DNA from: Deltaproteobacteria bacterium
Lineage (GTDB): Bacteria; UBA10199; SPLOWO2-01-44-7
NCBI GenBank assembly: GCA_016213065.1
Contig: JACRBV010000119.1
Coordinates: forward strand, 1 to 41,899
Direction: 5' to 3'
DNA length: 41,899 bases
Below the pieces are notes generated by a model. That model searched no databases. It was not told the DNA's origin and saw only the letters and a list, made by a program, of their open reading frames with translations. Shown piece after piece: positions 3,935 to 41,899 of the stretch (position 1 is its first letter; every line of letters starts with the position of its first letter). A program made the translations under genes and the position numbers.

Positions 3935-4602
3935 TTTCCCCCCGTCCATAGTCCATGGTCCATAGTCCCTTGTCCTTCTCCAAACGCCCATTCCATCTGC
4001 CAATGTTCCTTCCCCGTATTTTTTGTTACTTCTCCAGATAAAACAAACTGTTCCGCCACGGCTGATTTTGTTTTTGGATCGATCAAAATTTCTCCTGTCC
4101 CTTCCAGCGCGATATCCTGAATTCCATAAGCTTTGAGCTTTTGACTCAAATCCCTTTCTTCTTCCGTCAACGGAATAATTTCATCTTTTGCTTTGAGGGA
4201 AAGATGCTCCCGATATTTTTCGAAGCTTGTTCCAAGAATGTTGACGGTATTTTTGTCATCGAATGTTCTTTGCAACGCAAGCGTCGGAAAATCTTCAAAA
4301 ATAAAGGGTGCTGTTTCCTCTAGAGACGGCAAACCCGCAAGATACCATGGAGAGCCGGAAATCAGATGATCCGGGAAAAGGCCGACGCGTTTATTAAAAT
4401 AAATTTCATTTCCTTCGATGCGGGCAGAAAATTCACGCACCTGAGCTCCGCGTTTTTCAATATAGGTGATATGTTTTTGGGCGAGGGCCGGACTATGGAC
4501 CATGGACCATAGACCAAGGACCAACAACAAAAATAGTGATTTTAGGTTTTTAGTCCCTTGTCCATGGTCCATAGTCCATTGTCCTTTCCCATGTCCTTTC
4601 AT
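3931..4602 (-). CDS. Secreted protein of unknown function between tadB and tadC
   Basis: ORF 3931..4728 trimmed to ATG 4602, which forms ATGA with the tadB stop (4599-4602). Its own stop forms ATGA with the tadC start (3931-3934). It has a signal-peptide-like segment, TKNLKSLFLLLVLGLWSMVHSPALA/QK. The first ~37 and last ~12-19 codons are encoded by GGACCAT-type heptad repeats. Confidence 0.55.
   Translation of the reverse strand: MKGHGKGQWTMDHGQGTKNLKSLFLLLVLGLWSMVHSPALAQKHITYIEKRGAQVREFSARIEGNEIYFNKRVGLFPDHLISGSPWYLAGLPSLEETAPFIFEDFPTLALQRTFDDKNTVNILGTSFEKYREHLSLKAKDEIIPLTEEERDLSQKLKAYGIQDIALEGTGEILIDPKTKSAVAEQFVLSGEVTKNTGKEHWQMEWAFGEGQGTMDHGLWTGGK
3944..3978. repeat. Heptad tandem repeat, family G, GTCC orientation (single arm)
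   Basis: GTCCATA GTCCATG GTCCATA GTCCCTT GTCCTTC, five 7-nt units. Lies in the last codons of the 3931..4602 ORF. Confidence 0.85.
4490..4599. repeat. Family G heptad hairpin, cargo-free
   Basis: The left arm 4490-4524 is GGACTAT GGACCAT GGACCAT AGACCAA GGACCAA. The loop is 28 nt. The right arm 4553-4599 is GTCCCTT GTCCATG GTCCATA GTCCATT GTCCTTT ... GTCCTTT. Arms 4490-4521 and 4553-4584 are complementary at 27 of 32 positions by my alignment. Confidence 0.85.
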
Positions 4603-5153
4603 ATTTCTATCCTCGACAAATGACGCATCCAGAACCAACCGCCTGCATCTAAAATTAAAATCGCGCAGAGAGCCATCCATCCCAGCGCGCTCTCCCACAA
4701 AGGAGAAATAAATTCGGGGGACAAACAAAAAAGTGCCAGTCCAAGACCCAAAGGCATGAATCCCAAAATCACTCCCTGAGTCATTCCCTGCGTTGTTTGA
4801 AGTCTGATTTTAGAAGAAACTTTTTTTCTTTCCCGCAAAATGTGCGCCAAATTTTCAAAATGCGGGACAAAATTTCCGCCAGTCTGGCGCAAAATCAAAA
4901 CCGAATGCACCATCAAAGAAAAGTCGGCCAGTTTTAATGCGGACTCTTTTGCAAGAAGGGCTTCTTCCAGCGACCATCCCAAATTAACTTTTTCCAAAAT
5001 TTCCTTGAATTCCTCTTTCAGAGGAGAAGGCCCCTCTTGACTCGCCATTTGCAAAGCTTGAGGGAAACTCAATCCCGCCTTCATCGCGTTGGCGACCATC
5101 GTAAAAAATTCCGGAAGTGTTGCTTCGATCTCCTTTAATTTTTTCCGTTTCAT
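4599..5153 (-). CDS. tadB: Flp pilus assembly protein TadB (short T2SS-F domain protein)
   Basis: 184 aa. LPEFFTMVANAMKAGLSFPQALQMASQEGPSPLKEEFKEILEKVNLGWSLEEAL... followed by C-terminal TM segments, the GspF/TadB fold pattern. ATG 5153 overlaps the cpaF stop as ATGA. Confidence 0.75.
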   Translation of the reverse strand: MKRKKLKEIEATLPEFFTMVANAMKAGLSFPQALQMASQEGPSPLKEEFKEILEKVNLGWSLEEALLAKESALKLADFSLMVHSVLILRQTGGNFVPHFENLAHILRERKKVSSKIRLQTTQGMTQGVILGFMPLGLGLALFCLSPEFISPLWESALGWMALCAILILDAGGWFWMRHLSRIEI

Positions 5154-6991
5154 GCCAGCCCTCCGAAAATATCTTCAAGCAAAAAGACATCTCCTTCCAG
5201 TCCGGTTATCTTTGAAATTTGCGTGATTTTTCTCTCGCCACCGGACAATCTTGACACCTGAATAATCAGATCAATCGCCGAGGCGATTTGTTCCCGAATT
5301 ACTTTGGAAGGAAGTTCCATACCCGAAAACATCACGAGAGTTTCCAGACGATTCAGCGCATCGCGCGGAGCATTGGCGTGAAGAGTTGTGAGCGATCCTT
5401 CGTGTCCCGTGTTCATCGCCTGCAACATGTCAAGCGCCTCGCCACCGCGGCATTCTCCGATCACAATCCGGTCGGGGCGCATGCGAAGCGCGTTGCGAAC
5501 AAGATCACGGATGGTGATCGATCCCTTCCCTTCGATATTGGAGGGGCGCGATTCAAGCCGCACAACATGGGGTTGACGCAACTGAAGTTCCGCCGCATCT
5601 TCAATGGTGATAATGCGTTCCGTTTCCGGAATAAACGAAGACAAAACATTGAGAAGCGTTGTCTTGCCGGAACCGGTGCCGCCCGAAACAAGAATATTTT
5701 TTCGAGTCCGCACTGCTTCTTCTAAAAATGCAAATGTCTCCTCGCTGGCGGCTCCCATTTGTATCAAATTTTTCGGACCCAAAAGTTCTTTGGAAAACCG
5801 GCGGATGCTGATGACCGGACCATTGAGAGCCAGAGGAGACAGAATAATGTTGACGCGCGAACCATCATGGAGACGCGCATCAACCATCGGAGAAGATTCA
5901 TCCACGCGTCTTCCCACCGGCAACAAAATTCGTTCGATTGTTTTTTGCAAAGAGTCGGCATTCAAAAATTTCAACGGGGTGAGGCGGAGTTTTCCCTTCT
6001 CTTCCACATAAATTGTACCTGCGCCGTTGACCAGAATTTCACTATAGCCGGAATTGGAGATCAATTTTTCCAAGGGACCAAGACCTAGCAATTCACTCAA
6101 CAACTCTTCAAGCAGAGCCGTTTTATCGAGCGACTCTGGGAAAGTGTGTGATTTTGCCGCCATCACCTCTAAAATAATTTTGGAAATCTTTGGTCGGAGT
6201 TCCTTGTCTTCTTTTTCCGCTTTCAGTCCCTTTGCTTCCATTTCTTCCTGAACCGACCGCAGAAGCGCGATCTTTAAAGAGTTCGTGTCTTCGCCGGAAA
6301 TGACTTGTTCAACAGAAGAAGGAGAAGAGATAGCCGAATCAATTCTATCTTCCTGTTTTTGAAGTGCCTCAATCACTTCTTCAACCGAAGAGCCCCGGCA
6401 GGAAATTTTTGAAAAATCGCTGACGGTTTTGTTTGTCAAAAAAGATTGTGCATCCCAATTCCACGCAACCCAACCTGTTTTTTCCAGAGGAAAATAATTC
6501 TGGATAAGCTCATCCGCTTTGCAACGCAATTCCTGCACGAGATTGGAATGGGCCTGCAAAACAAAAAGAAGGCAAAAACTTTTTTCCAACAGTGGAGTTA
6601 TAAAAGGATTCCATCGCGAACCAATATCAGCCACGACATAATCAAAATGAACCAGCAAAGGTTCCAGAAGAGAAAAGGCACTCCGGGGTGTGAAATTGGA
6701 AAGTTCCGATCGCGCCTTTCCCCAACTAAGAGAATCAACGCCGTCGGAATTCTTCAAAAAACCATGAAGCCAATTTTTATCAACGGGCTCGGGAATTTTC
6801 TGCAAATCCCGCAAAGTCCGCCAACCATTTTGAGAAGAAGAAAGACGGCCCAAATCCCCCACATATTCAGGATGCCAATCCAAAAGAAGAACCCTAACCC
6901 CCTGCTTCTTCAATCCCAAAGCCAGCTTAAGCGCAAACGAAGAAGCTCCGACTCCATCTTTGACACCCATGATATTGATAAAACGTGTCAT
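5150..6991 (-). CDS. cpaF: Fusion of a TadZ/CpaE-like ParA/MinD-type domain with the CpaF/TadA secretion ATPase
   Basis: The C-terminal ~400 aa are classic CpaF: [23 protein letters not shown] (Walker A), [48 protein letters not shown]. The N-terminal ~200 aa ([41 protein letters not shown]...DYVVADIG...) look like MinD/ParA with a degenerate deviant Walker A, as in TadZ. Start placed at ATG 6991; the track start at 7009 lies in the A-rich repeat. Confidence 0.85.
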
Positions 6992-6992
6992 A

Positions 6993-7047
6993 GAAAAATT
7001 AAAAATCAAAAATTAAAAACCAAAAACACATATCAAAAATTAAAAAT
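6993..7047. repeat. Family A heptad array (AAAAATY), left arm of 4HB cassette A
   Basis: GAAAAAT TAAAAAT CAAAAAT TAAAAAC CAAAAAC ACATAT CAAAAAT TAAAAAT. The core is AAAAACACATA. Confidence 0.85.
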
Positions 7048-7049
7048 AA

Positions 7050-7430
7050 CTACCTGCGGCCCTTCATTGTTAAAATGCTGGGGGCAAAAATATTGGCAAA
7101 TTCTTGTGTTTCTTTTAACAAGGCATCGCAGGAAACAAGACATTCTTGCGACACAAGACCGCTTTCTTTTAGAAGAGAAAGCCAAAATCGCGATTCATTG
7201 GACGATTTCAACGAATGGTTGAAGTAGTTTTGATAGTCTTTTTTTGAACTGGCGCCTTGAGCTTCAAAATAATTTGCTCCAATGCTTGTACCGCTACGGA
7301 CAAGCTGTCCAGAGATTTCCCGATAAATTGGTTCTTTAGGCAAATATTGCAAAAATTTTATCAAATTCAGGGAGTATTGGTATATTCGCCTTTTGAATTC
7401 CATGTGATGGCTTTGATAATTGTTTTGCAT
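7050..7430 (-). CDS. Four-helix-bundle protein (TIGR02436 / PF05635, 23S rRNA intervening-sequence protein / Avd family)
   Basis: 126 aa. ...YQYSLNLIKFLQYLPKEPIYREISGQLVRSGTSIGANYFEAQGASSKKDYQNYFNHSLKSSNESRFWLSLLKESGL matches the family signature (L.RSgTSIGANy.EA.gA.SkkDf......KE..Et.yWL.LL). An alternative start is ATG 7403. Confidence 0.85.
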   Translation of the reverse strand: MQNNYQSHHMEFKRRIYQYSLNLIKFLQYLPKEPIYREISGQLVRSGTSIGANYFEAQGASSKKDYQNYFNHSLKSSNESRFWLSLLKESGLVSQECLVSCDALLKETQEFANIFAPSILTMKGRR

Positions 7431-7448
7431 AGTTGTTTTTTATATTTG

Positions 7449-7489
7449 GTATGTGTTTTTAATTTTTGATCTTTGATTTTTGATTTTTC
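7449..7489. repeat. Family A heptad array, inverted right arm of 4HB cassette A
   Basis: GTATGTGTTTTTAATTTTTGATCTTTGATTTTTGATTTTTC. Its reverse complement matches the left arm at about 34 of 41 positions, including the CACATA core. It overlaps the last codons of cpaC. Confidence 0.85.
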
Positions 7490-8901
7490 ATGTAATCAAG
7501 ATATTCTCGCATCGACCTCTCCTTAACCATTGCCTCTTCCCTCTTCTGCCACTCTTCCTGAGCCGCCTTGGCGTCGGCCAGTGGATCTGCGATGCGTGGC
7601 AAAACAAAAACTACGAGTTCGGAACGACTCGATTGAAAATCTTTCGAAAGAAAAAGTGTGAAGAGCGCGGAGGAGGTGGCCAAATCTTTGGGCACGCGAT
7701 TGTAAGTCTTTACATCGCGATTGCTCAAAATTCCCCCCAACACCACCGCTTGTCCCAGAGGAAGATACGCCGTGGTGTTTAATGTGTGCGTGTTGATTCC
7801 GCCCTGAATGTGAGGCGAAGCCGAAGAAATGGTCGCGTTGAGTTTTAAATCAATGTCGCTCCCCGCCACAATGGGTTGCGCCTCCACTTTTACTCCCACC
7901 TCTTTGAACTGCACCGACTGCTGGGCATAATAAGGTACCTGCACGCCGCTGAAAAAATTTGCCAAGTCACCGCTTTTGACAAAAAGGGTTGGGTTTTCCA
8001 AAACACGCCCCAAACCTTTTTCCTGAATGAGACGGATTTTCGGCAAAAGATTCATCACAAAACCGATCAGCGATTGTCCCAAACCACCGATGCCTCCACC
8101 ACTTCCACCTAACCCTTCACCGCCACCTTGAGGAAAAGAACCGGGCGCCCATTCAATTCCAAAAGAGCGCAAGGCCGATTTTTGAATCTCCATAAAATAA
8201 ATGTCGAGTTGCACCATCGGTTCTTTTCCGGGATTGCGGTCTCCCTGTTTTACTTCAATGAGGTTGAGACAGTTGGGGTCATAAAGTTTTGCAATCTCGA
8301 ACGCCTTGTTGGAGGCCGATTGGCTAAAAGCCACGCCTTCCAAAATCACACGGTCTCGCACCGAGCGAACCTTGATCCCCGGTGTCGCGATTGCTTTTTC
8401 AATGCGCGAGGTAAGTGTGTCCAGCACCGGTTTTGCAAGTGTCACTTCGTTGACAATTTGCGGATAGCGCGCGGAAAAACTTTGTATCCTTTTATAATCG
8501 GAGGGCGATGGCGCCTCGCCCACAATATGAATGGTGTTGTCTTGTGTGATAAACTGAATCGAAGAGATCGAACCAAACGATTGTTTCGCCTCTCCCAAAA
8601 TTCCTTTGAGGTTGGTGCCGTAAACAGTGACAGGAATGACATCTCTCGCCTCACCCTGTTTATCCCACAGCGTAAGCGTTGTGAAACCCTCACCCTTGGC
8701 GTTCAAATAAATTGATTTGCGGTCTTCCTGAATAAAAAAGTCGGCAACTTTCGGATCCGTCAACGCTACATCGCCGATTTCATATTCTGTAATGAGCGTG
8801 TTTGATTCGCCGCGGGAGAGAGACTGCGCGGGAAGAGACTGTGCCCTTGCCAATAACGGAGTGAAAAATAAAAAATTAAATACCAAAAATGAAAAACACA
8901 T
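7459..8901 (-). CDS. cpaC: Flp pilus secretin CpaC/RcpA
   Basis: Has the N-terminal pilus-formation domain (ITEYEIGDVALTDPKVADFFIQEDRKSIYLNAKGEGFTTLTLWDKQGE). The C-terminal secretin domain reads GLGRVLENPTLFVKSGDLANFFSGVQVPY...VVLGGILSNRDVKTYNRVP...ELVVFVLPRI. Start set at ATG 8901 (MCFSFLVFNFLFFTPLLARAQS is the signal peptide). The 24 track codons upstream are repeat read-through. Confidence 0.85.
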   Translation of the reverse strand: MCFSFLVFNFLFFTPLLARAQSLPAQSLSRGESNTLITEYEIGDVALTDPKVADFFIQEDRKSIYLNAKGEGFTTLTLWDKQGEARDVIPVTVYGTNLKGILGEAKQSFGSISSIQFITQDNTIHIVGEAPSPSDYKRIQSFSARYPQIVNEVTLAKPVLDTLTSRIEKAIATPGIKVRSVRDRVILEGVAFSQSASNKAFEIAKLYDPNCLNLIEVKQGDRNPGKEPMVQLDIYFMEIQKSALRSFGIEWAPGSFPQGGGEGLGGSGGGIGGLGQSLIGFVMNLLPKIRLIQEKGLGRVLENPTLFVKSGDLANFFSGVQVPYYAQQSVQFKEVGVKVEAQPIVAGSDIDLKLNATISSASPHIQGGINTHTLNTTAYLPLGQAVVLGGILSNRDVKTYNRVPKDLATSSALFTLFLSKDFQSSRSELVVFVLPRIADPLADAKAAQEEWQKREEAMVKERSMREYLDYMKNQKSKIKN

Positions 8902-8970
8902 ATCAAAAATCAAAAATTTTTTATTTTTTGTTTGTATTTTTGATTTTTGGTTTTTGATTTTTAATTTTTT
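8863..8970. repeat. Family A heptad hairpin, cargo-free
   Basis: The A-rich arm 8863-8917 (...CCAAAAATGAAAAACACATATCAAAAATCAAAAAT) is followed by the T-rich arm 8918-8970. There is a perfect 14-bp stem, 8904-8917 with 8936-8949, and an 18-nt loop. The cpaC ATG (8901) and signal-peptide codons lie in the left arm. Confidence 0.85.
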
Positions 8971-8972
8971 CA

Positions 8973-9794
8973 TTATTTGCCCCTATACTCCCTGTATCCG
9001 TTGCTCCGCACATGGCCTTTCATTCCCAATACGTCCAACATTGTGGTGGGGCTTAAGGAGAGCGGCTCCTCTTCCAAGAGAGGGCGCAAGGCGAGTGAGA
9101 TTTTGGATTGTGTTTTTGCGAATTCGATTGTTTGCGCTTGTCTCGGAGTAACACAGAGTGTGATTGTTTTTTTCCGCGAAGCAATATTTTCGGAAAAAGA
9201 GCTTCCCGACAAAAAACTTTTCTTGATACTGTTTTTGGCCACCGTTTCCAGCGTCACTTTGGAGCCGAGGTCTTCCCCCACCGCCAACACAAGAATTTTT
9301 TGCGCCACGGTTTGTGTTGTCACAGAGGCGGTGTCGGTGGAATCTTCGATCTCAAATGTCGCCAAAATATCGACAAAATTATTGGGTCGCACCAGCCCCG
9401 CCACGCCGCCTGCATCATCTATATCCAAACTTAACGCCCGCATTCCTTGTGGAATTTTTACCGCCAGCCCCGTAATACTGCTCAAGGCCATCAACTTCGT
9501 TTCTAAAATTTGTTCCCCTTTCAAAATCGGGGCGGCGCTCACAAAACCTACGGCTGACTCCAAAGAAGTCGCCGGACTCGGTTGCAAAAAGCGGCGTGGA
9601 ATTTGTGTTGTTTGAAGCAGTGATTCATCCAAACGCGTGCCCTCCAAAATATCTTTTTTCGCCACAAGCACGGAAATCGGTTCCTCCAGCGAGTTAAACC
9701 GCGCTTCTTTTGCTTTCAAAAAACCCCAAACAAGAAAGAGACTGAAAAAAGCAAACAGGGAGGCGAGCAAAACTGGTTTTTGTTTCCATTTCAT
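8973..9794 (-). CDS. cpaB: Flp pilus assembly protein CpaB/RcpC (SAF domain)
   Basis: MKWKQKPVLLASLFAFFSLFLVWGF (TM) followed by ISVLVAKKDILEGTRLDESLLQTTQIPRRFLQP...AAPILKGEQILETKL, which is the SAF/CpaB pattern. ATG 9794 forms ATGA with the stop of the upstream ORF. Confidence 0.85.
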   Translation of the reverse strand: MKWKQKPVLLASLFAFFSLFLVWGFLKAKEARFNSLEEPISVLVAKKDILEGTRLDESLLQTTQIPRRFLQPSPATSLESAVGFVSAAPILKGEQILETKLMALSSITGLAVKIPQGMRALSLDIDDAGGVAGLVRPNNFVDILATFEIEDSTDTASVTTQTVAQKILVLAVGEDLGSKVTLETVAKNSIKKSFLSGSSFSENIASRKKTITLCVTPRQAQTIEFAKTQSKISLALRPLLEEEPLSLSPTTMLDVLGMKGHVRSNGYREYRGK

Positions 9795-10027
9795 TTTTTC
9801 CTCCCGTCGCAAATGGCTGGATCGATTTGGCAGGGTCTTTCCAAAACAGAAACGGAGAGTTCTTTTTTCTGTAACGTTTCGATCTGTTTATGTTCCGCAT
9901 TTATCAAACGAAACCGGGACTCTGTCGAAATTTTAAAAAGCTTCATAAAGGCCCAGAAAAAAACGAGCATGAGCGGCAACAAGAGAATCAGTTCCGTTGT
10001 GGCGGCGCCTTTTTTATTTCTGATCAT
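9791..10027 (-). CDS. TadE-like pseudopilin/pilus assembly protein
   Basis: 78 aa from ATG 10027. MIRNKKGAATTELILLLPLMLVFFWAF fits the TadE N-terminal motif (G-x-x-x-x-E-hydrophobic-P). Confidence 0.6.
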   Translation of the reverse strand: MIRNKKGAATTELILLLPLMLVFFWAFMKLFKISTESRFRLINAEHKQIETLQKKELSVSVLERPCQIDPAICDGRKK

Positions 10028-11131: not shown

Positions 11132-11403
11132 GGGTTGGCCTTTGTCATTTCCTGATTTGTCTTGAGAGTTTCAGTGATATTCGCTCCCAATCCGTTAACC
11201 CCTTCCTGAAATATGGGAATGATGCGTGAAGCCGCGGCCACAAGCCCAATCACAATCACGGCGATCAGAAGCATATATTCCGTGGCGCTCTGCCCTTTCT
11301 GATTCCGCAAAATTCTGCATTCTATTTTAGACTCCGCAAACTCTTCGAGTTTGCTTCGCGGTCTGGCAAAGCCAAACCTTGACTTAGATGATTTGTTCAA
11401 CAT
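11128..11403 (-). CDS. flp: Flp/Fap family type IVb prepilin (long leader)
   Basis: ...RILRNQKG/QSATEYMLLIAVIVIGLVAAAS is the Flp motif (G/xxxxEY plus a hydrophobic helix). A strong SD sits 6 nt upstream of ATG 11403 (AAAGGAGGCAATCATG on the coding strand), implying a 37-aa leader. Confidence 0.75.
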   Translation of the reverse strand: MLNKSSKSRFGFARPRSKLEEFAESKIECRILRNQKGQSATEYMLLIAVIVIGLVAAASRIIPIFQEGVNGLGANITETLKTNQEMTKANP

Positions 11404-11830
11404 GATTGCCTCCTTTAGTTGATAGACTATTTGATAGACTATGGACTACGGACCATGGACTATAGACTTCAGACTCAACGGCTCTGATTAAACCGAACAA
11501 ACATCTTGCAGTTTTTTGGCAGATTAGAGTCAGCTCTTCAAAAAGAGAACTATTTAAAAACAAAAGACGTCTTGAAATCTCCAACAGCGCTTCTGTTTCA
11601 GAAAGAGATCCCCTAGCTATATACAAAAAATTTAAATAGTCCTTTTTATGCTGTCTGCTGGCTCCTTCCGCAATGTTTGCCAACGTGGAAATGGCAGCGC
11701 GTCGCATCTGAGAAATCAAACCGTAACGTTCTTCCTTTGAAAAATTTGAGGTACGAGTATAAATTTGAACCGCAAGGTCGCTGGCTAAAATCCAAGCCTG
11801 TATATTTTTAAAGTTTCTCATCATCGTCAT
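11384..11830 (-). CDS. Four-helix-bundle protein (TIGR02436 / PF05635, 23S rRNA IVS protein / Avd family)
   Basis: ...FKNIQAWILASDLAVQIYTRTSNFSKEERYGLISQMRRAAISTLANIAEGASRQHKKDYLNFLYIARGSLSETEALLEISRRL is the canonical family signature (Q.RRAa.Si..NIAEG....s.k....fl.iA.GS..E). Start candidates are ATG 11830, 11824 or 11821; the track start at 11851 lies in the repeat arm. The C-terminal ~30 aa (YSPWSVVHS...) are read-through of the left repeat arm. Confidence 0.85.
   Translation of the reverse strand: MTMMRNFKNIQAWILASDLAVQIYTRTSNFSKEERYGLISQMRRAAISTLANIAEGASRQHKKDYLNFLYIARGSLSETEALLEISRRLLFLNSSLFEELTLICQKTARCLFGLIRAVESEVYSPWSVVHSLSNSLSTKGGNHVEQII
11424..11477. repeat. Family G heptad array, left arm of 4HB cassette G
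   Basis: AGACTAT (ttgat) AGACTAT GGACTAC GGACCAT GGACTAT AGACTTC AGACTCA. Confidence 0.85.
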
Positions 11831-11866
11831 GGTCCTTGGTCCATTGTCCATGGTCCCTAGTCCTTT
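11826..11866. repeat. Family G heptad array, inverted right arm of 4HB cassette G
   Basis: GTCATG GTCCTTG GTCCATT GTCCATG GTCCCTA GTCCTTT. Its reverse complement matches 11443-11467 at about 22 of 25 positions. It ends 1 nt before the flp-like stop codon (11867). Confidence 0.85.
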
Positions 11867-12334: not shown

Positions 12335-13654
12335 ATGAATAAAAATGAAATTGTGACGCTTATTTATGATTGGCAGAACCTAATCCTGAAAAGAAAGGGT
12401 GTGGAACGTTATAACGAATCTGCCATCCTCTCCGCGATTACATCGAAGCCAATCAAAATAATTACCGGGTTTAGAAGAGCTGGTAAATCATTTCTGGCAC
12501 AAAGAATCGCAAAAATACTCGTCGAGAAAAAGGAATATAAAATTGAAAACATTCTCTACCTGAATTTTGAGGATTATAATTTGGCCGATATCAACTCGGC
12601 AAAGAAGTTGGGGGAGATATATTCCGTTTTTCTATCCGACATTGCAAAAGACGGTCTTAAATTAATTTTTCTTGATGAGATACAAAACGTGCATGGTTGG
12701 GACAAATTTGTAAGAACGATATATGAAAAAAGCGACGACACGACAATCATACTCACCGGTTCAAATTCCGAACTTCTTTCGGCAGAACTCGGTTCAAATC
12801 TTGCAGGAAGGTACATTGAGTTTTTTCTTTTTCCGTTCAGCTTTAGAGAATTTTTGAGTTATAAAAAAATTGAAGTAAAAAATGAAAAAGACTATTTGAG
12901 GCAAAAAGCGGAACTCGAAAAATTGTTTTTCGAATACGCATGTTTTGGCGGCCTTCCTGAAATTTTTGAAATTGCGAGCGAAGATGCGAAATACTCCTAT
13001 CTCAAGGGCATCACGACCAAAGTTGTACTCGATGATATCGTAAAAAGATTTAAGGTAGATAACATCGATGTTTTAGAGCGTTTACTGAGTTATGTCCTTT
13101 CGAACATTGGCACTGTTGTTTCATATACCAATTTAAAGGACAGGATAAAATCTCTCGGCATTGAAATTAAGGTCGAAACGGTCATTAAATACATCAATTA
13201 TTTTACCAAAGCATTTGTTGTTTTGGAGCTCAACAAATTCGACTGGAAACAACGCAAGATATTTTCTTCATCGAAAAAGTTTTACTCAATAGATGCGGGG
13301 CTGGCCGGCCTGTATCGCACAGGTCGTGAAAATTTTTCTATGAAACTGGAAAATCTCATTTTCCTCCATCTGAGAAGAAAAACTGACAAAATCTTTTATG
13401 GAATAAATGAGCGCGGGCGGGAAATTGATTTTATTCTCAATCGTGATGGCAATGCTTTTGACAAATATCAGGTTTGTTCCGATCTCAATAAGGATAATCT
13501 GGCCAGGGAACTGGGCGTTTTCGATCTTTCTGACAAATATCTAAAGAAAGGAACCAATCTGATTCTGACATTAACGAACGAGCTTGAATCCGCTGTTCTC
13601 AAAAAACACAACGCGAGTCACTCCAATATAATGAAATGGCTTTTGGAAATTTAA
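12335..13654 (+). CDS. AAA+ ATPase, AAA_14 + DUF4143 family (COG1373-like)
   Basis: 439 aa. Walker A-like ITGFRRAGKSFLAQ and Walker B IFLDEIQNVHGWDKFVRTIYE, with the C-terminal DUF4143-like region ...KFYSIDAGL...EIDFIL. Clearly more AT-rich than its neighbours. Confidence 0.8.
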   Translation: MNKNEIVTLIYDWQNLILKRKGVERYNESAILSAITSKPIKIITGFRRAGKSFLAQRIAKILVEKKEYKIENILYLNFEDYNLADINSAKKLGEIYSVFLSDIAKDGLKLIFLDEIQNVHGWDKFVRTIYEKSDDTTIILTGSNSELLSAELGSNLAGRYIEFFLFPFSFREFLSYKKIEVKNEKDYLRQKAELEKLFFEYACFGGLPEIFEIASEDAKYSYLKGITTKVVLDDIVKRFKVDNIDVLERLLSYVLSNIGTVVSYTNLKDRIKSLGIEIKVETVIKYINYFTKAFVVLELNKFDWKQRKIFSSSKKFYSIDAGLAGLYRTGRENFSMKLENLIFLHLRRKTDKIFYGINERGREIDFILNRDGNAFDKYQVCSDLNKDNLARELGVFDLSDKYLKKGTNLILTLTNELESAVLKKHNASHSNIMKWLLEI

Positions 13655-13833: not shown

Positions 13834-14682
13834 ATGGGTAACACTGTTGTTGCGTTGTCGCTGGATCGTGTTTTTCGTGCAGTAGGAGAAACTTACGGAA
13901 GCGTGCAGGAAAAGGATTTGCGCTACTTTTTGGGAAGCTACGGGTTGCGCGATAAAGACAGTTTGTCCCTTGTACAGGGGGAAGATGGAGAAGCCACGGC
14001 ATCGCTTGATCTTCAGTTATCATCCGGACCCATCAAAGGAATTTTACGTTTTAGTAAATCGGGAAATGTGTCTGAATCCGTCTCAAGTCCGAATTTTTCT
14101 TTTTTCTCGCAGAAAATGGGCAGACCAAATACCCTTGTAACCCGTTTTTTATTTGCATTGGCCTTTGGCCCACAAAATTTGGACACTCCCCTTTCCGATG
14201 AAGAAACCAAACTTTTTGCCGGTGCAAAGCTACTTTATGACAATCCGACCCCTTATGACAAAAGAGCGGATCTTACGCAAAAAATTGCAAATCAGCTTCT
14301 CTTCGCGGCACGCATGATTGAGCTGGCCGACCAAGAGGGCAATGCTGGCGAACTTCGGACTGAGTTTTCCAAAAAGGTCGGACAATTGGACACAGACGAA
14401 CTACCCGGTTTGAATAACAATGATGCTTTGGAACGCCGCGCTCTCGTTTCAAGTCTCATGGTCGGTACTTTTGTTCAAATGGAAGCGGGTGCCAGAGCTT
14501 GCGCAAAACTTGGAAGATGTTTGGTCATTGCCGAACACCCAACATGCACAGGGAAAAAAATTGAAGACTCAGCACGTTATCATTATGTTTATCGTGGAGT
14601 AGAAATCTTCGCAGTGGGAAGACCTTTATGCGCAGATCCCCAAAAACAATATCAGGGATGGGGGATGGGAAAATATTATTAG
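13834..14682 (+). CDS. Hypothetical protein (no recognisable domain, no signal peptide)
   Basis: 282-aa ORF preceded by a strong SD (CAAGGAGGAAAAAATG). The C-terminal part is Cys-containing (CAKLGRCLVIAEHPTCTGK...RPLCADP). Confidence 0.5.
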   Translation: MGNTVVALSLDRVFRAVGETYGSVQEKDLRYFLGSYGLRDKDSLSLVQGEDGEATASLDLQLSSGPIKGILRFSKSGNVSESVSSPNFSFFSQKMGRPNTLVTRFLFALAFGPQNLDTPLSDEETKLFAGAKLLYDNPTPYDKRADLTQKIANQLLFAARMIELADQEGNAGELRTEFSKKVGQLDTDELPGLNNNDALERRALVSSLMVGTFVQMEAGARACAKLGRCLVIAEHPTCTGKKIEDSARYHYVYRGVEIFAVGRPLCADPQKQYQGWGMGKYY

Positions 14683-14849: not shown

Positions 14850-16037
14850 TCAAGGCGGGTGGCCTGTGGCCAAAGCTACGGGATAACCCATCCCCTTGGG
14901 AACTTTGAGGGGATAGCCGGGCGGGAGGGGAAGACCGCCGTTAAAAACTTCCGAACGGATGGCGGGATTAAGGCGCCGTAAAGCTTTCATATCTATGGCA
15001 AGTCTGCCGGCCATTTCGGGAAGATTTAGAAAATCAGGCGTTTTGACGATATCGTATTGCTCCAACAAATCATTTTCCGGCGTTCCGAAGGTTTCCTTTT
15101 GCCATTTAAGAATTTCCGCCACCGCCAAAAATTCCGGATAATAATTTCGAGACCAAAATCCGTAAGCGGGATCGTCATATTCATGAATGATAACGGCGAT
15201 ATCTTTGGTCTTCAATTTTTTCCACGCCTTCTCAATCCGCCCAAGACCGGAATGATAGGAATTGACGGCCAAGCCCCAATCCCCGGTTCTTCGATGCAAA
15301 TCCTTGAGAAGGCGGGCGGCGCCATCGGAAGCGTGAATCGGATCATTGCGTCCGTCCCAAAAGGAATTCATGGGAACATATTCTTTTCCGATCTTCGGCA
15401 TAAATTGCCACAAACCCGATGCCCCGATTTCCGAAAGTGCTTTGGGATTAAACATGGATTCAATAAACATCAACGCCGTCAGTTCCCCGGGCAAACCATA
15501 AGATTCAAAAACGGCTTCAATGTCTCCCAGAGTTTGGGTGGACTTGGCAATTGCAGACTGAAGATTGGATCGCTGTCCCACCTGCACGCGAATGCGGTTT
15601 TGCGCCTCCCTGTATTCCGCACTCAAAGGTTTTTTCAGGCGTAAGGAACAGGACAAAAACATTTTTTCATAATATTTTTCTTCGGGAGTCAATTTTTCCT
15701 GCTGAACACCTTGGGCCAGATGTTCCAAAGAAACCGTGATTTTTTCACGGACATTTACCACTTGAGTACGAATGATTTCCTCTTTTTGTTTCGGAGAAAG
15801 ATCTTTGCGCTCCCCTATTTTGGAAAAATCCAGAACTTGGTAGAGAACATTGAGACACTTGTCATCATGAAGGAGAACTTGCCTGCGGTCATAGGTGCCA
15901 AAAACCGTTTTCCAAAAACGAACTTCATCGGAAAGGGAAGGGGGAGAAGGAAAGTGCTTGAGTGCGTAAGTGCTTGAGTGCGTCGGTGCCGGAGAAAAGA
16001 AAAAACCAATAAAGACAAGAAACAACAGACGCAACAT
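14850..16037 (-). CDS. Lytic murein transglycosylase, MltD-like (SLT domain + LysM-like C-terminus)
   Basis: SLT catalytic motif ...LMFIESMFNPKALSEIGASGLWQFMP...AVNSYHSG. The C-terminal YDIVKTPDFLNLPEMAGRLAIDMKALRRLNP is LysM-like. The track start at 16049 is a TTG. I use ATG 16037 (MLRLLFLVFIGFFFSPAPTHS is the signal peptide). Confidence 0.85.
   Translation of the reverse strand: MLRLLFLVFIGFFFSPAPTHSSTYALKHFPSPPSLSDEVRFWKTVFGTYDRRQVLLHDDKCLNVLYQVLDFSKIGERKDLSPKQKEEIIRTQVVNVREKITVSLEHLAQGVQQEKLTPEEKYYEKMFLSCSLRLKKPLSAEYREAQNRIRVQVGQRSNLQSAIAKSTQTLGDIEAVFESYGLPGELTALMFIESMFNPKALSEIGASGLWQFMPKIGKEYVPMNSFWDGRNDPIHASDGAARLLKDLHRRTGDWGLAVNSYHSGLGRIEKAWKKLKTKDIAVIIHEYDDPAYGFWSRNYYPEFLAVAEILKWQKETFGTPENDLLEQYDIVKTPDFLNLPEMAGRLAIDMKALRRLNPAIRSEVFNGGLPLPPGYPLKVPKGMGYPVALATGHPP
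15953..15992. repeat. Octamer tandem repeat (AGTGCKTN x4-5), inside the 5' coding region of the MltD-like gene
   Basis: AGTGCTTG AGTGCGTA AGTGCTTG AGTGCGTC GGTGCCGG. Confidence 0.8.
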
Positions 16038-16052
16038 TTTTTTATCCAACTT

Positions 16053-16076
16053 AAGTACTTACGTACTTACGCACTT
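16053..16076. repeat. Octamer tandem repeat, inverted partner (ACGYACTT x3) in the MltD-like 5' UTR
   Basis: AAGTACTT ACGTACTT ACGCACTT. The reverse complement AAGTGCGTAAGT... matches AGTGCGTAAGT in the 15953-15992 array as an 11-nt perfect match. Confidence 0.8.
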
Positions 16077-23792: not shown

Positions 23793-23876
23793 AAAAAAAT
23801 TAAAAATTAAAAATAAAAAATTAAAAATAAAAAATCAAAAATAAAAAATTTAGAAATCAAAATTTAAAATCCCCAA
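23793..23876. repeat. A-rich heptad/hexad array (family A-like, no inverted partner) forming the whole atpD-gspE spacer
   Basis: AAAAAAATTAAAAATTAAAAATAAAAAATTAAAAATAAAAAATCAAAAATAAAAAATTTAGAAATCAAAATTTAAAATCC... Nearly GC-free for 84 nt. Confidence 0.8.
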
Positions 23877-31048: not shown

Positions 31049-31123
31049 GGACCATGGACCATGGACCAACTGCTTTTTCTGGTTTTTAGTCCATGGTCTA
31101 TGGTCCATAGTCCATGGTCTTGT
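31049..31123. repeat. Family G heptad hairpin, cargo-free, intergenic
   Basis: Left arm GGACCAT GGACCAT GGACCAA, then the loop, then right arm GTCCATG GTCTATG GTCCATA GTCCATG GTCTTGT. Positions 31049-31066 pair with 31089-31106, 18 bp with one G-U. The loop begins with AAC after GGACC and ends GGTTTTTA before GTCC, as in the 4490-4599 copy. Confidence 0.85.
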
Positions 31124-31130: not shown

Positions 31131-31502
31131 TTAGTATCCCATAAACAACGCCGGATTGTTACGATACAAATCTCGGCGCCGGTTTTTGGACGGATCCTTA
31201 ATCATTTCTACAATCAGCGTGGCCTCGTCGGCATACAGCGTATCCGGATAACGGGACAGGATTTTTTCGCAATACTCCAGCGATGTCACATAGTCGCTGG
31301 TCATCTCTAGTTTCTGCGCCAGATCCAGCCACTGTTTGGCCTGATAGTGATCTTTTTTGCTGAGATTCGCCGTTGATTCGGGAGGCCTCGATGTCAGAGC
31401 GCTTGGCGGACGCTGTTTTACCCCGCAGGCAGACGCCAGAAAAAAAAGAGCTATAGCAAGAGCAAAACAAAATGTCCGTTTTTGTGTATGCCAGTTTGTC
31501 AT
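31131..31502 (-). CDS. Small TPR-like lipoprotein downstream of the secretin (possible pilotin/BamD-like)
   Basis: MTNWHTQKRTFCFALAIALFFLASAC carries the lipobox LASAC. It is followed by ...HYQAKQWLDLAQKLEMTSDYVTSLEYCEKILSRYPDTLYADEATLIV, which is TPR-like. ATG 31502 lies inside a MITE core. The track ORF extends to ATG 31607 through the repeat (FWIPAFAGMT). Confidence 0.5.
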   Translation of the reverse strand: MTNWHTQKRTFCFALAIALFFLASACGVKQRPPSALTSRPPESTANLSKKDHYQAKQWLDLAQKLEMTSDYVTSLEYCEKILSRYPDTLYADEATLIVEMIKDPSKNRRRDLYRNNPALFMGY

Positions 31503-31575
31503 TCCCGCGAAGGCGGGAATCCAGAAAAGCTGAAAAAGACTGGATCCCTGCCTTCGCAGGGATGACAAAACGGGG
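31491..31575. mobile_element. MITE-family core element, copy 3 (short form lacking the outer TIRs)
   Basis: CCAGTTTGTCATTCCCGCGAAGGCGGGAATCCAGAAAAGCTGAAAAAGACTGGATCCCTGCCTTCGCAGGGATGACAAAACGGGG. It has the same two hairpins as copies 1 and 2. Confidence 0.75.
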
Positions 31576-37994: not shown

Positions 37995-40900
37995 TTATTT
38001 TATTTCTTCCACTTTGACGCTTTTTTCTGCGCGGACTTGTGCCCACCAGAGGACGAAGAAGAGAAAACTGATGACTCCAAGGAAACCGACGATGACAAAA
38101 ATAATCCGCCATGTTGTGCTTGTTGCGGGTGCCCCGCCGGCAAAGATGGATTCGGCAACCATTTTAAGGGCCTCGGAGCCTTTGGGACCGCCCGGCCCCT
38201 CTCCGGATCCGCCGCCCACACCAACGGATCCACCGGCACTCCCTCCCGCACCACCCCTGCCCGCCGCAACATAGGCAACCTTTCCCAACCCCAAATCCTT
38301 GGCCTGCACGCCGGGCGCCACGGTAATCAACCCCGCCATTTTTTCCAGCTTGTCGATCCTGTTTTTGATTGTCTCCAAAAAGGAAAGGCTTTGATGAAAA
38401 ATTTCCACATGTTCCCCAAGCCCTGATTCTTTTCCCTGATTTTGTCTCAGACCCGAAACGCCCTCCACAATTTCTTTGCTCAAAAGGTTGGCCTCTTCGC
38501 TGAATGTCGTTCCATCAAGGGCTTTGGCAAGGGCTTTGGCGCGTTCCTGAATTCCCAAGAGTACGCCTTCCGGCAGTCTCCAAATGTCCCGAAGAATCAC
38601 TTCAAAAATCTTGATGTCCGCCGGTTTCAAATCCACCGCGTCTTTGTAAAGATAAAGTCTGCCCTGTTCCAGATCGTGAAGGACTTCCAGAAGGCCTCTG
38701 TCCAGAACGTCTTTTTCGAGCACTTCTTTGGGAAGATAGTGTTTGACGGCGATTCTTGTGGCTTCCGTCTGAGAGGGGTTTTTGACTTCCACTTTTAAAG
38801 TAACCTTCTCGACTTCAGTCGTGCCGCTACCTTCCTGACCTTCCGAAGTTTCACCCAAACCGAGCGTGGCACCCTCCACCCAACGTCCCATGTCCCCTTC
38901 CGCACCTTCACCCGCGTTTTTTCCGGGAAAACCCGAAGGTCCGCCGGGGCCGCCCGGTCCCTCTCCGGAACCACCACCTGCCCCGCCGCCTTTCTTGAAT
39001 CCCATCCCCTCACCGGCCAGTTTTTCAAGGAAGGCCGTATCTTTTTTGATCTCTTGGAAGACAAGAAGATTTTTGCGGTGAACCTCGATGTGTTTGGCAG
39101 GGCCCACGTCTTCATCCTGACTTGTGAGGATATTATCCAAACGGGTCTGAATGGTTTCGCCCAGTTTCTTGGCCGCCTCAGAATATTTCCAATTGTCCTT
39201 CAGCAGTTTAACCAGCTCCGACGCGTAACCTTTCTGGAAGGTGATTTCCCCATCAGGAATCCGCCAGATATCCTGTAGCCGGACCTGCAAAACTTTTTCT
39301 TCCGCGGGTTTTAATGTTGTTTCGCCATAGGCTTCGTAAATTCCCTTTTCAGCATTGAAGCCCACTTTCAAATCACCCGCATCCATGACGGATTCCCTCG
39401 TCGCCTCTTTCGGCAGAGGGATTCTAACCGGCACCGTAAAGCTTTCCTCCTTGGAAGGATTCACAATGAGGACTTTGAGGAGCACGGAACCCGATTCGTA
39501 CCAAGTTTTGACCACCGGCGCTTCGAAACCCTTCTGCTGTTTGGCCATCGTTGTTAAGACATCCAACATGGCCTTCACCCGCTCAATTTGATCCTGCAAG
39601 GATTTAACGTCCGCGGCCGTGGCCGGTTGAGCCAATTTTTCCATCCCGGGATGACCTTGGGACGCGGCCATCTCACCCACTTTGGCCATCGCCTCGGTAA
39701 GTCCCGTCTTCAGAGAATCCGTCGAAACACCGCTGGCAATTTTCGTAACATCCGATTGAACTTTTCCTAATTTATCGCTTAAGGAAGTCAGGGCCGACTT
39801 TGTCGCGTCGCTCGACGAGCCAGTTGTTGTCAGTGCCGCCTTGGCTTCTTCCGCGGCTGATGCGGCCCGTGAGGCCGTCGAACTCGCGTTGGAGGCATAA
39901 GTTGACGCGTTGGTGGCATCTTTCCCGATTGTGGTGAGACTGCCGGAAACACCGGCGATTTTTCCAAATACGCTGGAAGAGGAAGAAGAATCTGAGGCGC
40001 CACCCAAAAGCGATGTTACCGAGGAAAGCGCCGTGTTGATAGTGCCGGTATCCACGCTGAGACCGCTGTTGATTTTTGTGAGAATGCTGTCAATGTTTGT
40101 TTTTGCCGAAGACAGATTTGTTGAGAGCGTACTTGCGGCGGTGTTTACCGTGCCAACGGTCGTTGTCAAACTATCCAGACTGGTATCAAGTGTATTGACG
40201 TTGGTGTTGACGGAGAGCATGCCTCGAAGCAGAGTGTCCAGTTTGTAATTTAGACTGCCTACGACATCACCGCTGACCCCTCCCACCTCCGTACCCACTG
40301 TGGTAACTTTTGTGCCGAGTTCGGTACCCACTGTGGTAACTTTCGTCCCAAGTTCGGTACCCATTGTGCCGAGCTCGCTTCTAACCGTGGTCACTTTTGT
40401 GCCCACTTGATCCACGTAATCCTTGAGAAGACGCAAATCCTCGTACATGGAACCACCGCCGGCCGCGCCTTCCTCATAGCCGAACTTTTCTTGCAATTCG
40501 GTGACTTTATCGTAGGCACCCATCGTCTGTGTGAACAATTCATCCGCAGTCTTCGTTCCCCACTTGTTCTTCACATCCTTCACCAATCCAAAAACGGTAT
40601 TGCTGTAGGCGGGATCTTCGGGAGATCCCATCATGCCCCTAAGATTCGCCAGATCGGCCGTTGCCATGCCTACCTCCGACCAGTCAATCATGTCGGTCTT
40701 CATTTTGATGCCGGTGATGCTGTTCCAGTCAATCGTACCAGTCTTCGTCTTAATGGTTGCAACATCCGCCCAGTTGATGGGATCCGTTTTCTGCTGGATG
40801 GTACCGGCTTTGGTCACAATATCCGTCACGTCCGCCCAGTTAATACTCTGCGTCTTCGTCTTGATGGCCGCGATGTTGCCGGTGCCGATCTCGTTGACCA

Positions 40901-41899
40901 AGCCGGTTACATTTGTCCAGTCAATCGTATCTGTTTTTGTTTTGATCCCCGTGATCTGGTCCCAGTTAATGGTATCTGTTTTTGTTTTAATCGCCGAAAC
41001 ATTCGTCCAGTCAATGGGGTCTGTCTTGGCTTGAATCGTGTTGGTGGTTGTTACAAGGCCCGTCACGTCCGCCCAGTTGATACTCGCGGTCTTCGTGTTG
41101 ATCGCAGAAATGTTGCCGGTGCCGATTTCCGTAATGAGTGTGGCAACATTATTTTTCGCCGTCGTTACATCCGTCCAGTTGATCGTATCTGTTTTTGCCT
41201 TGACGCCTGTCACGTCCGCCCAGTTGATCGTATCGGTTTTCGTTTTAATCGCGGCCACATTCGTCCAGTCTATCGTGTCAGTCTTTGCTTTAATCGCACC
41301 GGAAGTTGTCACCAGTCCCGTCACGTCGGCCCACGCGATGGTGTCCGTCTTTGTCTTAATCGCCGCAATGTCTCCGGTTTGTGTGAGAACCGTCGCAACA
41401 TCATTCTTGGCCGTCGTTACATCCGTCCAGTTAATTGTATCGGTCTTTGCTTTGACGCCTGTTACATCGGCCCATGCAATCGTATCGGTCTTCGTTTTGA
41501 TGCCGGTCACATTTGTCCAGTCTATCGTGTCGGTCTTTGCCTGAATTGCTCCCGTCGCTGTGACAATTCCCGTCACGTCCGCCCACGCGATGGTGTCGGT
41601 CTTTGTTTTGACTGCCGCAATGTCTCCGGTTTGAGTGAGAATCGTCGCAACATTATTCTTGGCTGTCGTCACATCCGTCCAGTTAATTGTGTCCGTCTTG
41701 GTTTTGATGCCGCTTACATCCGCCCATGCAATCGTATCGGTCTTTGTTTTGATGCCGGTCACATTTGTCCAATCAATCGTATCCGTCTTCGCCTGAATCG
41801 CTCCCGCGCTTGTCACAAGGCCCGTCACATCCGCCCAGTTGATACTCGCAGTCTTCGTGTTGATCGCGGCAATGTTGCCTGTGCCGATTTCCGTAATCA
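37995..41899 (-). CDS. Giant repeat-rich surface protein, C-terminal 1300 aa (5' end beyond the right edge), C-terminal TM anchor
   Basis: The frame stays open to 41899; sequence upstream of the track Met continues the repeats (...ITEIGTGNIAAINTKTASINWADVTG). It contains 15-aa KTDTI-W repeats, S/T/A-rich low complexity, two ~170-190-aa duplicated modules and Gly-rich linkers. A C-terminal TM follows (WRIIFVIVGFLGVISFLFFVLWW), then a short basic tail. Confidence 0.8.
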   Translation of the reverse strand, partial: ITEIGTGNIAAINTKTASINWADVTGLVTSAGAIQAKTDTIDWTNVTGIKTKTDTIAWADVSGIKTKTDTINWTDVTTAKNNVATILTQTGDIAAVKTKTDTIAWADVTGIVTATGAIQAKTDTIDWTNVTGIKTKTDTIAWADVTGVKAKTDTINWTDVTTAKNDVATVLTQTGDIAAIKTKTDTIAWADVTGLVTTSGAIKAKTDTIDWTNVAAIKTKTDTINWADVTGVKAKTDTINWTDVTTAKNNVATLITEIGTGNISAINTKTASINWADVTGLVTTTNTIQAKTDPIDWTNVSAIKTKTDTINWDQITGIKTKTDTIDWTNVTGLVNEIGTGNIAAIKTKTQSINWADVTDIVTKAGTIQQKTDPINWADVATIKTKTGTIDWNSITGIKMKTDMIDWSEVGMATADLANLRGMMGSPEDPAYSNTVFGLVKDVKNKWGTKTADELFTQTMGAYDKVTELQEKFGYEEGAAGGGSMYEDLRLLKDYVDQVGTKVTTVRSELGTMGTELGTKVTTVGTELGTKVTTVGTEVGGVSGDVVGSLNYKLDTLLRGMLSVNTNVNTLDTSLDSLTTTVGTVNTAASTLSTNLSSAKTNIDSILTKINSGLSVDTGTINTALSSVTSLLGGASDSSSSSSVFGKIAGVSGSLTTIGKDATNASTYASNASSTASRAASAAEEAKAALTTTGSSSDATKSALTSLSDKLGKVQSDVTKIASGVSTDSLKTGLTEAMAKVGEMAASQGHPGMEKLAQPATAADVKSLQDQIERVKAMLDVLTTMAKQQKGFEAPVVKTWYESGSVLLKVLIVNPSKEESFTVPVRIPLPKEATRESVMDAGDLKVGFNAEKGIYEAYGETTLKPAEEKVLQVRLQDIWRIPDGEITFQKGYASELVKLLKDNWKYSEAAKKLGETIQTRLDNILTSQDEDVGPAKHIEVHRKNLLVFQEIKKDTAFLEKLAGEGMGFKKGGGAGGGSGEGPGGPGGPSGFPGKNAGEGAEGDMGRWVEGATLGLGETSEGQEGSGTTEVEKVTLKVEVKNPSQTEATRIAVKHYLPKEVLEKDVLDRGLLEVLHDLEQGRLYLYKDAVDLKPADIKIFEVILRDIWRLPEGVLLGIQERAKALAKALDGTTFSEEANLLSKEIVEGVSGLRQNQGKESGLGEHVEIFHQSLSFLETIKNRIDKLEKMAGLITVAPGVQAKDLGLGKVAYVAAGRGGAGGSAGGSVGVGGGSGEGPGGPKGSEALKMVAESIFAGGAPATSTTWRIIFVIVGFLGVISFLFFVLWWAQVRAEKSVKVEEIK

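Follow-up and report, generated by a model that had tools for sequence, protein, structure and literature searches.

A PF05635 four-helix-bundle gene between inverted heptanucleotide arrays at the cpaC/cpaF junction of a tad operon, and the recurrence of this layout among bacterial phyla

Results

A gene-bearing inverted repeat in a tad operon

The present study concerns a small gene encoding a four-helix-bundle (4HB) protein, designated 4HB#1, and the two inverted arrays of 7-nucleotide (nt) repeats, or arms, that enclose it between cpaC and cpaF in the tad operon of a Deltaproteobacteria bacterium (assembly GCA_016213065.1). The window analysed comprises 41,899 nt of contig JACRBV010000119.1, and all coordinates without a further label refer to this whole stretch. 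The gene order, entirely on the minus strand, is cpaB, cpaC, 4HB#1, TadZ-CpaF, tadB and tadC, and the features at the junction are as follows.

8973..9812, minus strand: cpaB/RcpC, neighbouring gene
7459..8973, minus strand: cpaC (secretin), directly upstream of the cassette, with an arm-encoded C-terminus
7430..7489, minus strand: cassette 5' arm, read in the transcript as A-rich heptads (GAAAAATCAAAAATCAAAGATCAAAAATTAAAAACACATACC...)
7050..7430, minus strand: 4HB#1 gene, 126 aa, PF05635 / S23p, by Pfam and structure model
6993..7052, minus strand: cassette 3' arm, read in the transcript as U-rich heptads
5150..6991, minus strand: TadZ-CpaF fusion gene, directly downstream of the cassette, start supported by orthologue N-termini

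Heptad inverted arms around the 4HB gene had been predicted at 6993-7047 and 7449-7489, and an inverted-repeat search confirmed them at greater length, as two arms of 60 nt (6993-7052 and 7430-7489) that are 85% complementary and spaced 377 nt apart. Both are built of AAAAATY heptads, and Tandem Repeats Finder (TRF) assigned a period of 7 to each (AAAAATC x7.9 at 6994-7047, TTTTTGA x4.7 at 7456-7488). In register, 51 of the 60 positions pair; displacement by +-7 leaves 40-42 pairs, and displacement by +-1 leaves 27-32. The core AAAAACACATA at 7022-7032 has its complement in the right arm, and a double-heptad pattern (AAAAATYAAAAATY, one mismatch allowed) is matched 21 times in the window against 1.0 expected.

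The simplest explanation would be a low-complexity, A/T-rich spacer that lies by chance beside an ordinary small gene, and the ancestral junction, as read in relatives, is itself A-rich (aaagaaaaagaaaaaATGA). Against this, the two flanks gave a Smith-Waterman score of 75, compared with a mean of 18.3 for flank shuffles (z = 20.6); composition-preserving arm shuffles reached a mean of 27.6 and a maximum of 53, and shuffles of heptad order reached a mean of 39.6, with 0/1000 attaining the observed score. The arms are therefore true mirror images, not merely two A/T-rich arrays. Together with orthologous junctions that lack the spacer and with the recurrence of the pattern in >150 independent loci versus 5% of controls, both described below, the shuffles refute the chance explanation, to which we assign a negligible probability.

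The cassette was expected to fill the space between its neighbours in the orientation of the operon, and it does so: the arms occupy the whole cpaC-cpaF intergenic space, and the cassette is sense to the tad operon. The cpaC stop (7459-7461) falls within the right arm, which also codes the last 8 cpaC codons (NQKSKIKN), and the cpaF ATG (6989-6991) is separated from the left arm by one base. A TTG at 7009 was considered as the cpaF start and rejected, as this position falls in the arm and the orthologue N-termini favour the ATG at 6991. Folding of the transcript region, proposed as a check, predicted for the minus-strand RNA 6975-7505 a single long stem that closes both arms and leaves the open reading frame (ORF) in the loop (-135.5 kcal/mol versus -97.7 for shuffles, z = -6.7); the stem comprises 60 bp, nearly all A-U. 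No intrinsic terminator (a short G+C-rich stem followed by a U run) was found at the arms by terminator scan, and consensus scans of the coding strand for a promoter or terminator belonging to the gene gave nothing above shuffle expectation, which is weak evidence. An Rfam scan of the window detected no known RNA family and no rRNA.

The 4HB proteins

The assignment of the gene to the four-helix bundles of the 23S intervening sequence (IVS) and Avd family was supported by several comparisons. 4HB#1 matches PF05635 at 2e-16 (60.6 bits, Pfam cut-off 33.8), and a second gene of the window described below, 4HB#2, matches it at 1.5e-31 (109.2 bits, same cut-off). The sequence of 4HB#1 also matches Protein Data Bank entry 2RLD (3.6e-13), and its AlphaFold2 (AF2) model, built from an alignment, consists of four helices with a pLDDT of 92.3. 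The closest folds found by Foldseek were 2RLD (template modelling (TM) score 0.74/0.86) and 2GSC, followed by Avd 4DWL, the Avd structures 4DWL and 8UB7 scoring TM 0.64-0.74. Entry 2RLD is a Bacteroides S23p-family protein with five chains, 2GSC is the Xcc0516 pentamer, and a pentameric toroid is a feature of the relatives 2GSC, 2RLD and Avd (PMC4990558); Avd is also present in 8UB7, the ribonucleoprotein structure of a diversity-generating retroelement (DGR). Read from the translations, the motif RxxxSxxxNxxE, part of the family motif GxxRxxxSxxxNxxE (PMC3936711), is found in 4HB#1 at R45, S49, N53 and E56 and in 4HB#2 as RRAAISTLANIAE. Among 25 homologues of 4HB#1 there are 38 invariant columns, and the protein is therefore under selection.

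Although Avd of DGRs shares its fold and superfamily with both 4HB proteins, the bAvd family PF22296 gave no match at E <= 0.01 for 4HB#1 and, for 4HB#2, a score of only 17 bits where the cut-off is 40, and the 4HB genes of the window adjoin pilus (tad) genes rather than a reverse transcriptase, so that they differ from DGR accessory genes.

Empty orthologous junctions

The claim that the cassette was inserted between cpaC and cpaF was examined at five orthologous tad loci found by TadZ-CpaF protein search at 55-58% identity, namely L162 (GCA_030648035.1), L163 (GCA_016203765.1), L164, L165 and ENA ERZ27297570; the contig of a closer relative, L161 (87% nucleotide identity), stops short of the cpaC/cpaF junction. 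The claim was substantiated, since none of the five loci carries a gene between cpaC and cpaF, and the two genes overlap by 4 nt (an ATGA stop/start) in L162, L163, L164 and ENA ERZ27297570 and are 23 nt apart in L165. These junctions are also free of a hairpin. In the relatives, CpaC ends in ...YMK(G/K)KKKK (DNA ...aaagaaaaagaaaaaATGA), an A-rich poly-lysine tail, and CpaC of the window retains the conserved ...MREYLDYMK and then ends in the arm-encoded NQKSKIKN. Because the orthologous junctions lack the cassette and the CpaC tail is replaced after YMK, the alignments indicate that the cassette, including its arms, is a lineage-specific insertion, whose landing site was the A-rich junction of the translationally coupled cpaC and cpaF. 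Cassette presence is thus sporadic among orthologous loci. The neighbourhood beyond the operon is partly conserved, an AAA_14/DUF4143 ATPase gene being found beside the tad locus both in the window (12335-13654) and in L163 (1-379).

The layout as a family-wide rule

More than 1000 homologues of 4HB#1 were found at 55-72% identity, the named sources including WOR-3, Omnitrophota and Patescibacteria, and homologues at 50-72% identity are spread over many phyla. A set of 80 such loci, one genome per GTDB species, covered many bacterial phyla and one metagenome-assembled genome (MAG) of a Methanophagales archaeon. Each upstream flank was aligned to the reverse complement of the downstream flank to give an inverted-repeat score, z > 4 being taken as significant, and 181 ORFs from the same loci served as controls. 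The median z was 8.9 for the 4HB#1-like cassettes and 0.4 for the controls, and the share exceeding the threshold was 80% and 5%, respectively. The best autocorrelation lag of the arm was 7 in 64/69 cases. Across phyla, the upstream arms consist of 3-5 AAAAATN units followed by a non-repeat core, AAAAAYACAnAY, ~20-25 nt before the ATG; judging by this shared sequence, the arms are co-inherited with the gene within the 4HB#1 subfamily.

The second set comprised 80 metagenome loci with 35-63% identity to 4HB#2, of which 76 could be scored. Significant inverted repeats were observed in 84% of these, and the period was 7 in 47/60 and 8 in 12/60. The units are highly diverse (e.g. GGACCGT, AGATGTC, GTGAGGT, GGCGACG and GTCACAAG), and other 4HB subfamilies met in the flanks have heptads of their own, such as GACTTAC and ATGAAAC. 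In the 4HB#1 and 4HB#2 families, respectively, the strongest tandem array per flank had period 7 in 125/158 and 109/150 flanks, and the 5' arm on the coding strand was purine-rich in 98% and 88% of cases. In both families, arm complementarity was 0.84-0.86 in register and 0.63-0.66 when the arms were displaced by +-7. The distribution of arm lengths is centred on ~4-5 units and is broad, from 3 to >10. A stretch of Ns at a scaffold gap accounts for the apparent difference in length in L183.

The same layout is found in cultured cyanobacteria, on plasmids of Nostoc, Calothrix and Geminocystis. The arms are GGGTGTA / CCCTACA in Nostoc punctiforme pNPUN01 and GGGAACA / TGTTCCC, pairing over 30/32 bp, in N. 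edaphicum pNe_5, and the Calothrix NIES-22 and Geminocystis plasmids likewise carry a cassette with heptad arms. In pNPUN01 (L167) and Calothrix NIES-22 plasmid1 (L168), a tyrosine recombinase/integrase gene of the same orientation immediately precedes the cassette, an adjacency that may reflect conserved synteny or may be a clue to cassette movement. Thus, a PF05635 gene between heptad arms is a family-wide rule across many bacterial phyla, one archaeal MAG, metagenomes and plasmids. That other 4HB genes should also have flanking inverted arrays, a point on which the original prediction depended, is what was observed, both for 4HB#2 with its inverted GGACYAT arms and for most of the ~160 homologues elsewhere.

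The cassette is co-oriented with both neighbours in 63/70 of the 4HB#1-like and 32/52 of the 4HB#2-like loci, and the median gaps to the neighbouring ORFs, 44-83 nt, are taken up by the arms only. The neighbours themselves are unrelated, 283 proteins falling into 213 clusters, and histidine kinase/response regulator pairs, sigma-54 activators, PrgI, sugar epimerases and EF-Tu recur among them simply as common families. The 4HB gene of the N. edaphicum plasmid is wedged within a conjugative-transfer operon. An rRNA or non-coding context was found for 0/160 related cassettes. The only gene in the cassette is that of the 4HB protein, and no recombinase is encoded.

A second 4HB gene, gene-less hairpins and other repeats in the window

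The window contains a further 4HB gene and several arrays or hairpins without a gene, the latter located where co-directional genes adjoin, as listed below.

31049..31119, minus strand: gene-less GGACCAT-type hairpin between co-directional minus-strand ORFs, z ~ -6, arms align with those of 4HB#2
23795..23869, no strand assigned: one-sided A-rich array, AAAAATT x10.6 (TRF), between the V-type ATPase B and PilB-like T2SSE ATPase genes
15952..16076, plus-strand fold z = -6.5: hairpin of 8-nt units (AAGTGCGT / ACTTACGT) where an SLT transglycosylase gene meets the next minus-strand ORF
11828..11863, minus strand: 5' arm of 4HB#2, GGACYAT heptads on the transcript strand
~11384..11830, minus strand: 4HB#2, PF05635, head of the tad operon, just upstream of flp; the ORF runs through its own 3' arm
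11419..11468, minus strand: 3' arm of 4HB#2, complement of GGACYAT heptads
8864..8969, minus strand: gene-less AAAAATC-type hairpin where cpaB meets cpaC, with 44/53 positions paired between its two arms of 53 nt
4490..4584, minus strand: gene-less GGACCAT-type hairpin where tadB adjoins a conserved ORF, z = -9.4, -63 kcal/mol, arms align with those of 4HB#2
3944..3975, minus strand: single GGACYAT-type array (half hairpin) at the junction of a conserved ORF and tadC

4HB#2 is only distantly related to 4HB#1, and the predicted fold at this gene likewise closes a stem. In its closest homologues, the heptads of the arms, translated in frame, form tails at the N- and C-termini, for example MDYGPWT... 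and ...HSPWSMVHSP. An orthologue that is 64% identical stands at the same tad-operon head position in L163, with GTCCGTA heptads downstream, and the window copy of 4HB#2 is therefore old.

The arms of the hairpin at 8864-8969 are collinear with those of the cassette, with the AAAAACACATA / ACACATA core at the same position. This hairpin begins directly after the cpaC ATG and in frame, so that the A-rich arm is translated as a run rich in Lys and the T-rich arm as the hydrophobic core in the signal peptide of CpaC (MKKLKIKNQKSKIQTKNKKFLIFDMCFSFLVFNFLFF). At the same junction, L163 (4460-4600) and L164 (205-300) have hairpins with other heptads, GGACCGT and AAWTCAA/CCCAAAT, respectively; thus, three heptad types are found in three related genomes, and none in L162. 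The hairpin at 4490-4584 could be translated as a signal-peptide-like segment (KNLKSLFLLLVLGLWSMVHSPALA), and the adjoining tad-operon ORF is without a Pfam match; GGACCAT-type repeats occur at the corresponding position in L161. For the array at 23795-23869, no complementary partner was found and no stem was predicted (z = -0.95). Two further features stand apart from the heptad hairpins: a non-periodic 30-bp palindrome at 31495-31569 (TTTGTCATTCCCGCGAAGGCGGGAATCCAG, 26/30 paired, 15-nt loop) and tandem repeats with units of 33, 45 and 252 nt at 40291-41875, within an ORF of 1277 aa (37995..41828) encoding a highly repetitive protein.

Both solo-hairpin types of the window, GGACCAT and AAAAATC, have a cognate gene-bearing copy in the window; no 4HB gene with the 8-nt units of 15952-16076 is present in it. 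Related loci totalling 585 kb contain 25 periodic solo hairpins near cassettes, mostly with the local heptad, and the N. edaphicum plasmid carries three GGGAACA solo hairpins besides its cassette. On the same plasmid (pNe_5, L192), two hairpins with different outer heptads, 14419-14562 (AAGGGGG) and 49370-49510 (ATTCAGA), are 87% identical over 79 nt. The loop of the former holds one ATTCAGA-type arm, which suggests that one heptad element is nested in the loop of another.

The pairing of gene and hairpin types might be read as the trace of a host or domesticated post-transcriptional module, in which a pentameric 4HB protein putatively binds the heptad arrays of its own arms and of the solo hairpins and tunes, in a TRAP-like manner, how stable the flanking cistrons are or how well they are translated. 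Besides the window, matching heptads of solo hairpins and a 4HB gene are seen in L102, L148, L153 and the N. edaphicum plasmid. The strict periodicity kept while the unit sequence varies would suit such a protein, as would arms of ~4-5 units beside the pentameric relatives 2RLD, 2GSC and Avd, the presence of Avd within the RNA-protein complex 8UB7, the strong conservation of the protein (38 invariant columns) and the retention of the gene at the tad-operon head in a distant relative. However, the match between gene subfamily and heptad is explained by co-inheritance alone, and array lengths are broad (3 to >10 units) without a peak at 5. In addition, the presence of the cassette at orthologous loci is sporadic, the host contexts are unrelated, and hairpins lie within coding 5' ends. 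We therefore regard a binding module as rather unlikely.

Discussion

Herein, we propose that the element at the cpaC/cpaF junction is a passenger cassette of the IVS type that rides in operon transcripts and consists of a PF05635 gene between two inverted arrays of ~4-6 tandem 7-nt (sometimes 8-nt) units, a reading to which we give a probability of about 0.6. By analogy, its stem-plus-ORF architecture would be that of the ORF-bearing 23S IVS. The 4HB gene is presumably promoterless and would be transcribed by read-through of the operon. In the polycistronic RNA, the arms would then pair into a stem of ~60 bp with the ORF in the loop, and this stem would most likely act in processing or insulation and so allow the host operon to tolerate its passenger; it may also keep the stop of cpaC near the start of cpaF. 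The hairpins without a gene, in turn, may be copies that lost it. The comparison with ORF-bearing 23S IVS cut by RNase III, already drawn in the original prediction, agrees with the literature, in which RNase III cleavage within the stem is described for the Coxiella IVS with its S23p ORF (PMC4990558).

Several observations weigh against this proposal. First, signs of movement were looked for without success. No target-site duplication was present at the arm boundaries of 87 loci (mean direct repeat of 3.28 versus 3.26 in controls), no relatives of the 4HB#1 subfamily were found in the viral contigs of IMG/VR, and no protein was found in two contexts: P0022 and P0203, each present in many contigs, always occupied the same one. 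As identical proteins always stand in the same context, there is no sign of recent multi-site spread. Second, the GC content of the gene tracks that of the host (r = 0.71 and 0.85) at ~7.5 points lower, and 4HB#2 keeps its position in a relative (L163) whose CpaF is just 55% identical. The cassettes thus look like long-term residents, which would fit a host-useful role as well. Third, no RNA-specific wobble was detected in either family, G.U and A.C arm mismatches being 66 versus 65 and 64 versus 60; this symmetry means that there is no visible upkeep of pairing at the RNA level alone. Fourth, the A/U-only stem of the cpaC/cpaF copy is weak per base pair. Finally, co-transcription and the cutting of the arms by RNase III are proposed by analogy with the IVS. 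Taken together, the null results on mobility point to long-resident elements, the movement of which is possibly DNA-level or host-dependent.

The symmetric mismatch spectra and the lack of target-site duplications might also be explained if the heptad palindromes were DNA-level structures that grow by replication slippage and template switching between the arms, their loops being landing sites of which the 4HB gene is one occupant. The three heptad types at one cpaB/cpaC junction, with none in a fourth genome, would be expected from such a process, and so would the Nostoc plasmid with half of one heptad element in the loop of another hairpin and with two hairpins of unlike heptads that are 87% identical over 79 nt. 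In addition, IVS elements take the place of loops in rRNA helices (PMC4990558), and heptamers have been reported as the commonest longer class of simple sequence repeats (SSR) and linked to polymerase slippage (PMC4679880; PMC4692102). However, in the 4HB#1 subfamily conservation across phyla extends from the gene to its arms, including a non-repeat core whose distance from the ATG is fixed, the orthologous cpaC/cpaF junctions are hairpin-free, and a strong bias towards the sense orientation is unexpected from a purely DNA-structural process. We consider this origin quite improbable, and the passenger cassette remains the preferred reading.

The proposed cassette resembles several known systems and differs from each. 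In the ORF-bearing 23S IVS of Leptospira and Coxiella burnetii, a PF05635/S23p ORF likewise lies in the loop of a stem formed by complementary ends, has no promoter of its own, rides the host transcript and is sporadic among relatives, consistent with horizontal acquisition; in contrast, the cassette is located in a protein-coding operon rather than an rRNA helix, and its arms are tandem 7-nt repeats, which we did not find described for IVS. The repetitive extragenic palindromic (REP) sequences, REPINs and the associated transposases (RAYT) also offer one gene between inverted copies of a short palindromic repeat that is scattered gene-less over the intergenic parts of the genome, but the gene of the cassette encodes a small helical protein without an HUH/Y1 domain, and its arms are tandem arrays, not a fixed REP. 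As in MITEs (miniature inverted-repeat transposable elements), short palindromes without a gene have ends in common with a version that carries one; unlike in transposons and MITEs, the inverted ends come with no target-site duplication, and the gene-bearing version has no transposase. Arrays of GGGAATC in Xanthomonas and GGGGAYT in Nostoc/Anabaena are mostly intergenic, and Xanthomonas contains 70-75 convergent inverted heptamer pairs able to form stem-loops (PMC4692102). In one heptamer example, the repeat separates pecE from pecF within an operon (PMC4692102; PMC4679880), and TAACTGA repeats are found in Beggiatoaceae (PMC4679880). The arrays of the window fit the description of tandem 7-nt convergent pairs and are similar to repeats of the short tandemly repeated repetitive (STRR) type, whereas the papers on heptamers read such repeats as G-quadruplex or regulatory motifs, without a link to PF05635 genes (PMC4692102; PMC4679880). 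A full-text search, with subscription journals outside its coverage, found no literature linking PF05635 genes to periodic inverted arms or to insertion at operon junctions, and the novelty of the association is provisional.

Genes of 23S_rRNA_IVP (PF05635) have been described within cas operons and CRISPR adaptation modules (PMC3936711; PMC10910872), one published example being a copy between cmr3 and cmr2 in Pleurocapsa (PMC3936711; PMC10910872). PF05635 genes also occur in rRNA insertions of candidate phyla radiation (CPR) bacteria. The published statistical associations with cas genes resemble the operon-junction insertions observed here and may not imply a function in CRISPR. This is a caution for annotation by guilt of association, as links between IVP and cas genes may reflect cassettes wedged into operons.

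A further and doubtful idea is that PF05635 proteins are the trans-acting partners of heptanucleotide palindromes (the cyanobacterial STRR-like repeats, Xanthomonas GGGAATC and the hairpins of the window), each subfamily recognising its own unit, maybe one per subunit of the pentamer, and maintaining, spreading or regulating the cassette and its gene-less copies. If true, the partnership would resemble REPIN/RAYT, with a non-enzymatic, RNA- or DNA-binding ring at its base, and it would give the S23p/IVS protein a function and the heptamer repeats of bacteria an origin.

Translation of the arms supplies end segments of neighbouring proteins, as in the CpaC tail and the CpaC signal-peptide region, and the elements therefore reshape host proteins. 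The stem-plus-ORF design known from rRNA appears to be general for riding operon transcripts, at least in the two subfamilies studied, none of whose 160 loci lies in rRNA. The S23p family is large and has had no function assigned in 30 years, and the heptanucleotide repeats of bacteria are likewise unexplained; a tight physical link between S23p genes and heptads that spans phyla makes both questions testable in cultured Nostoc or Xanthomonas.

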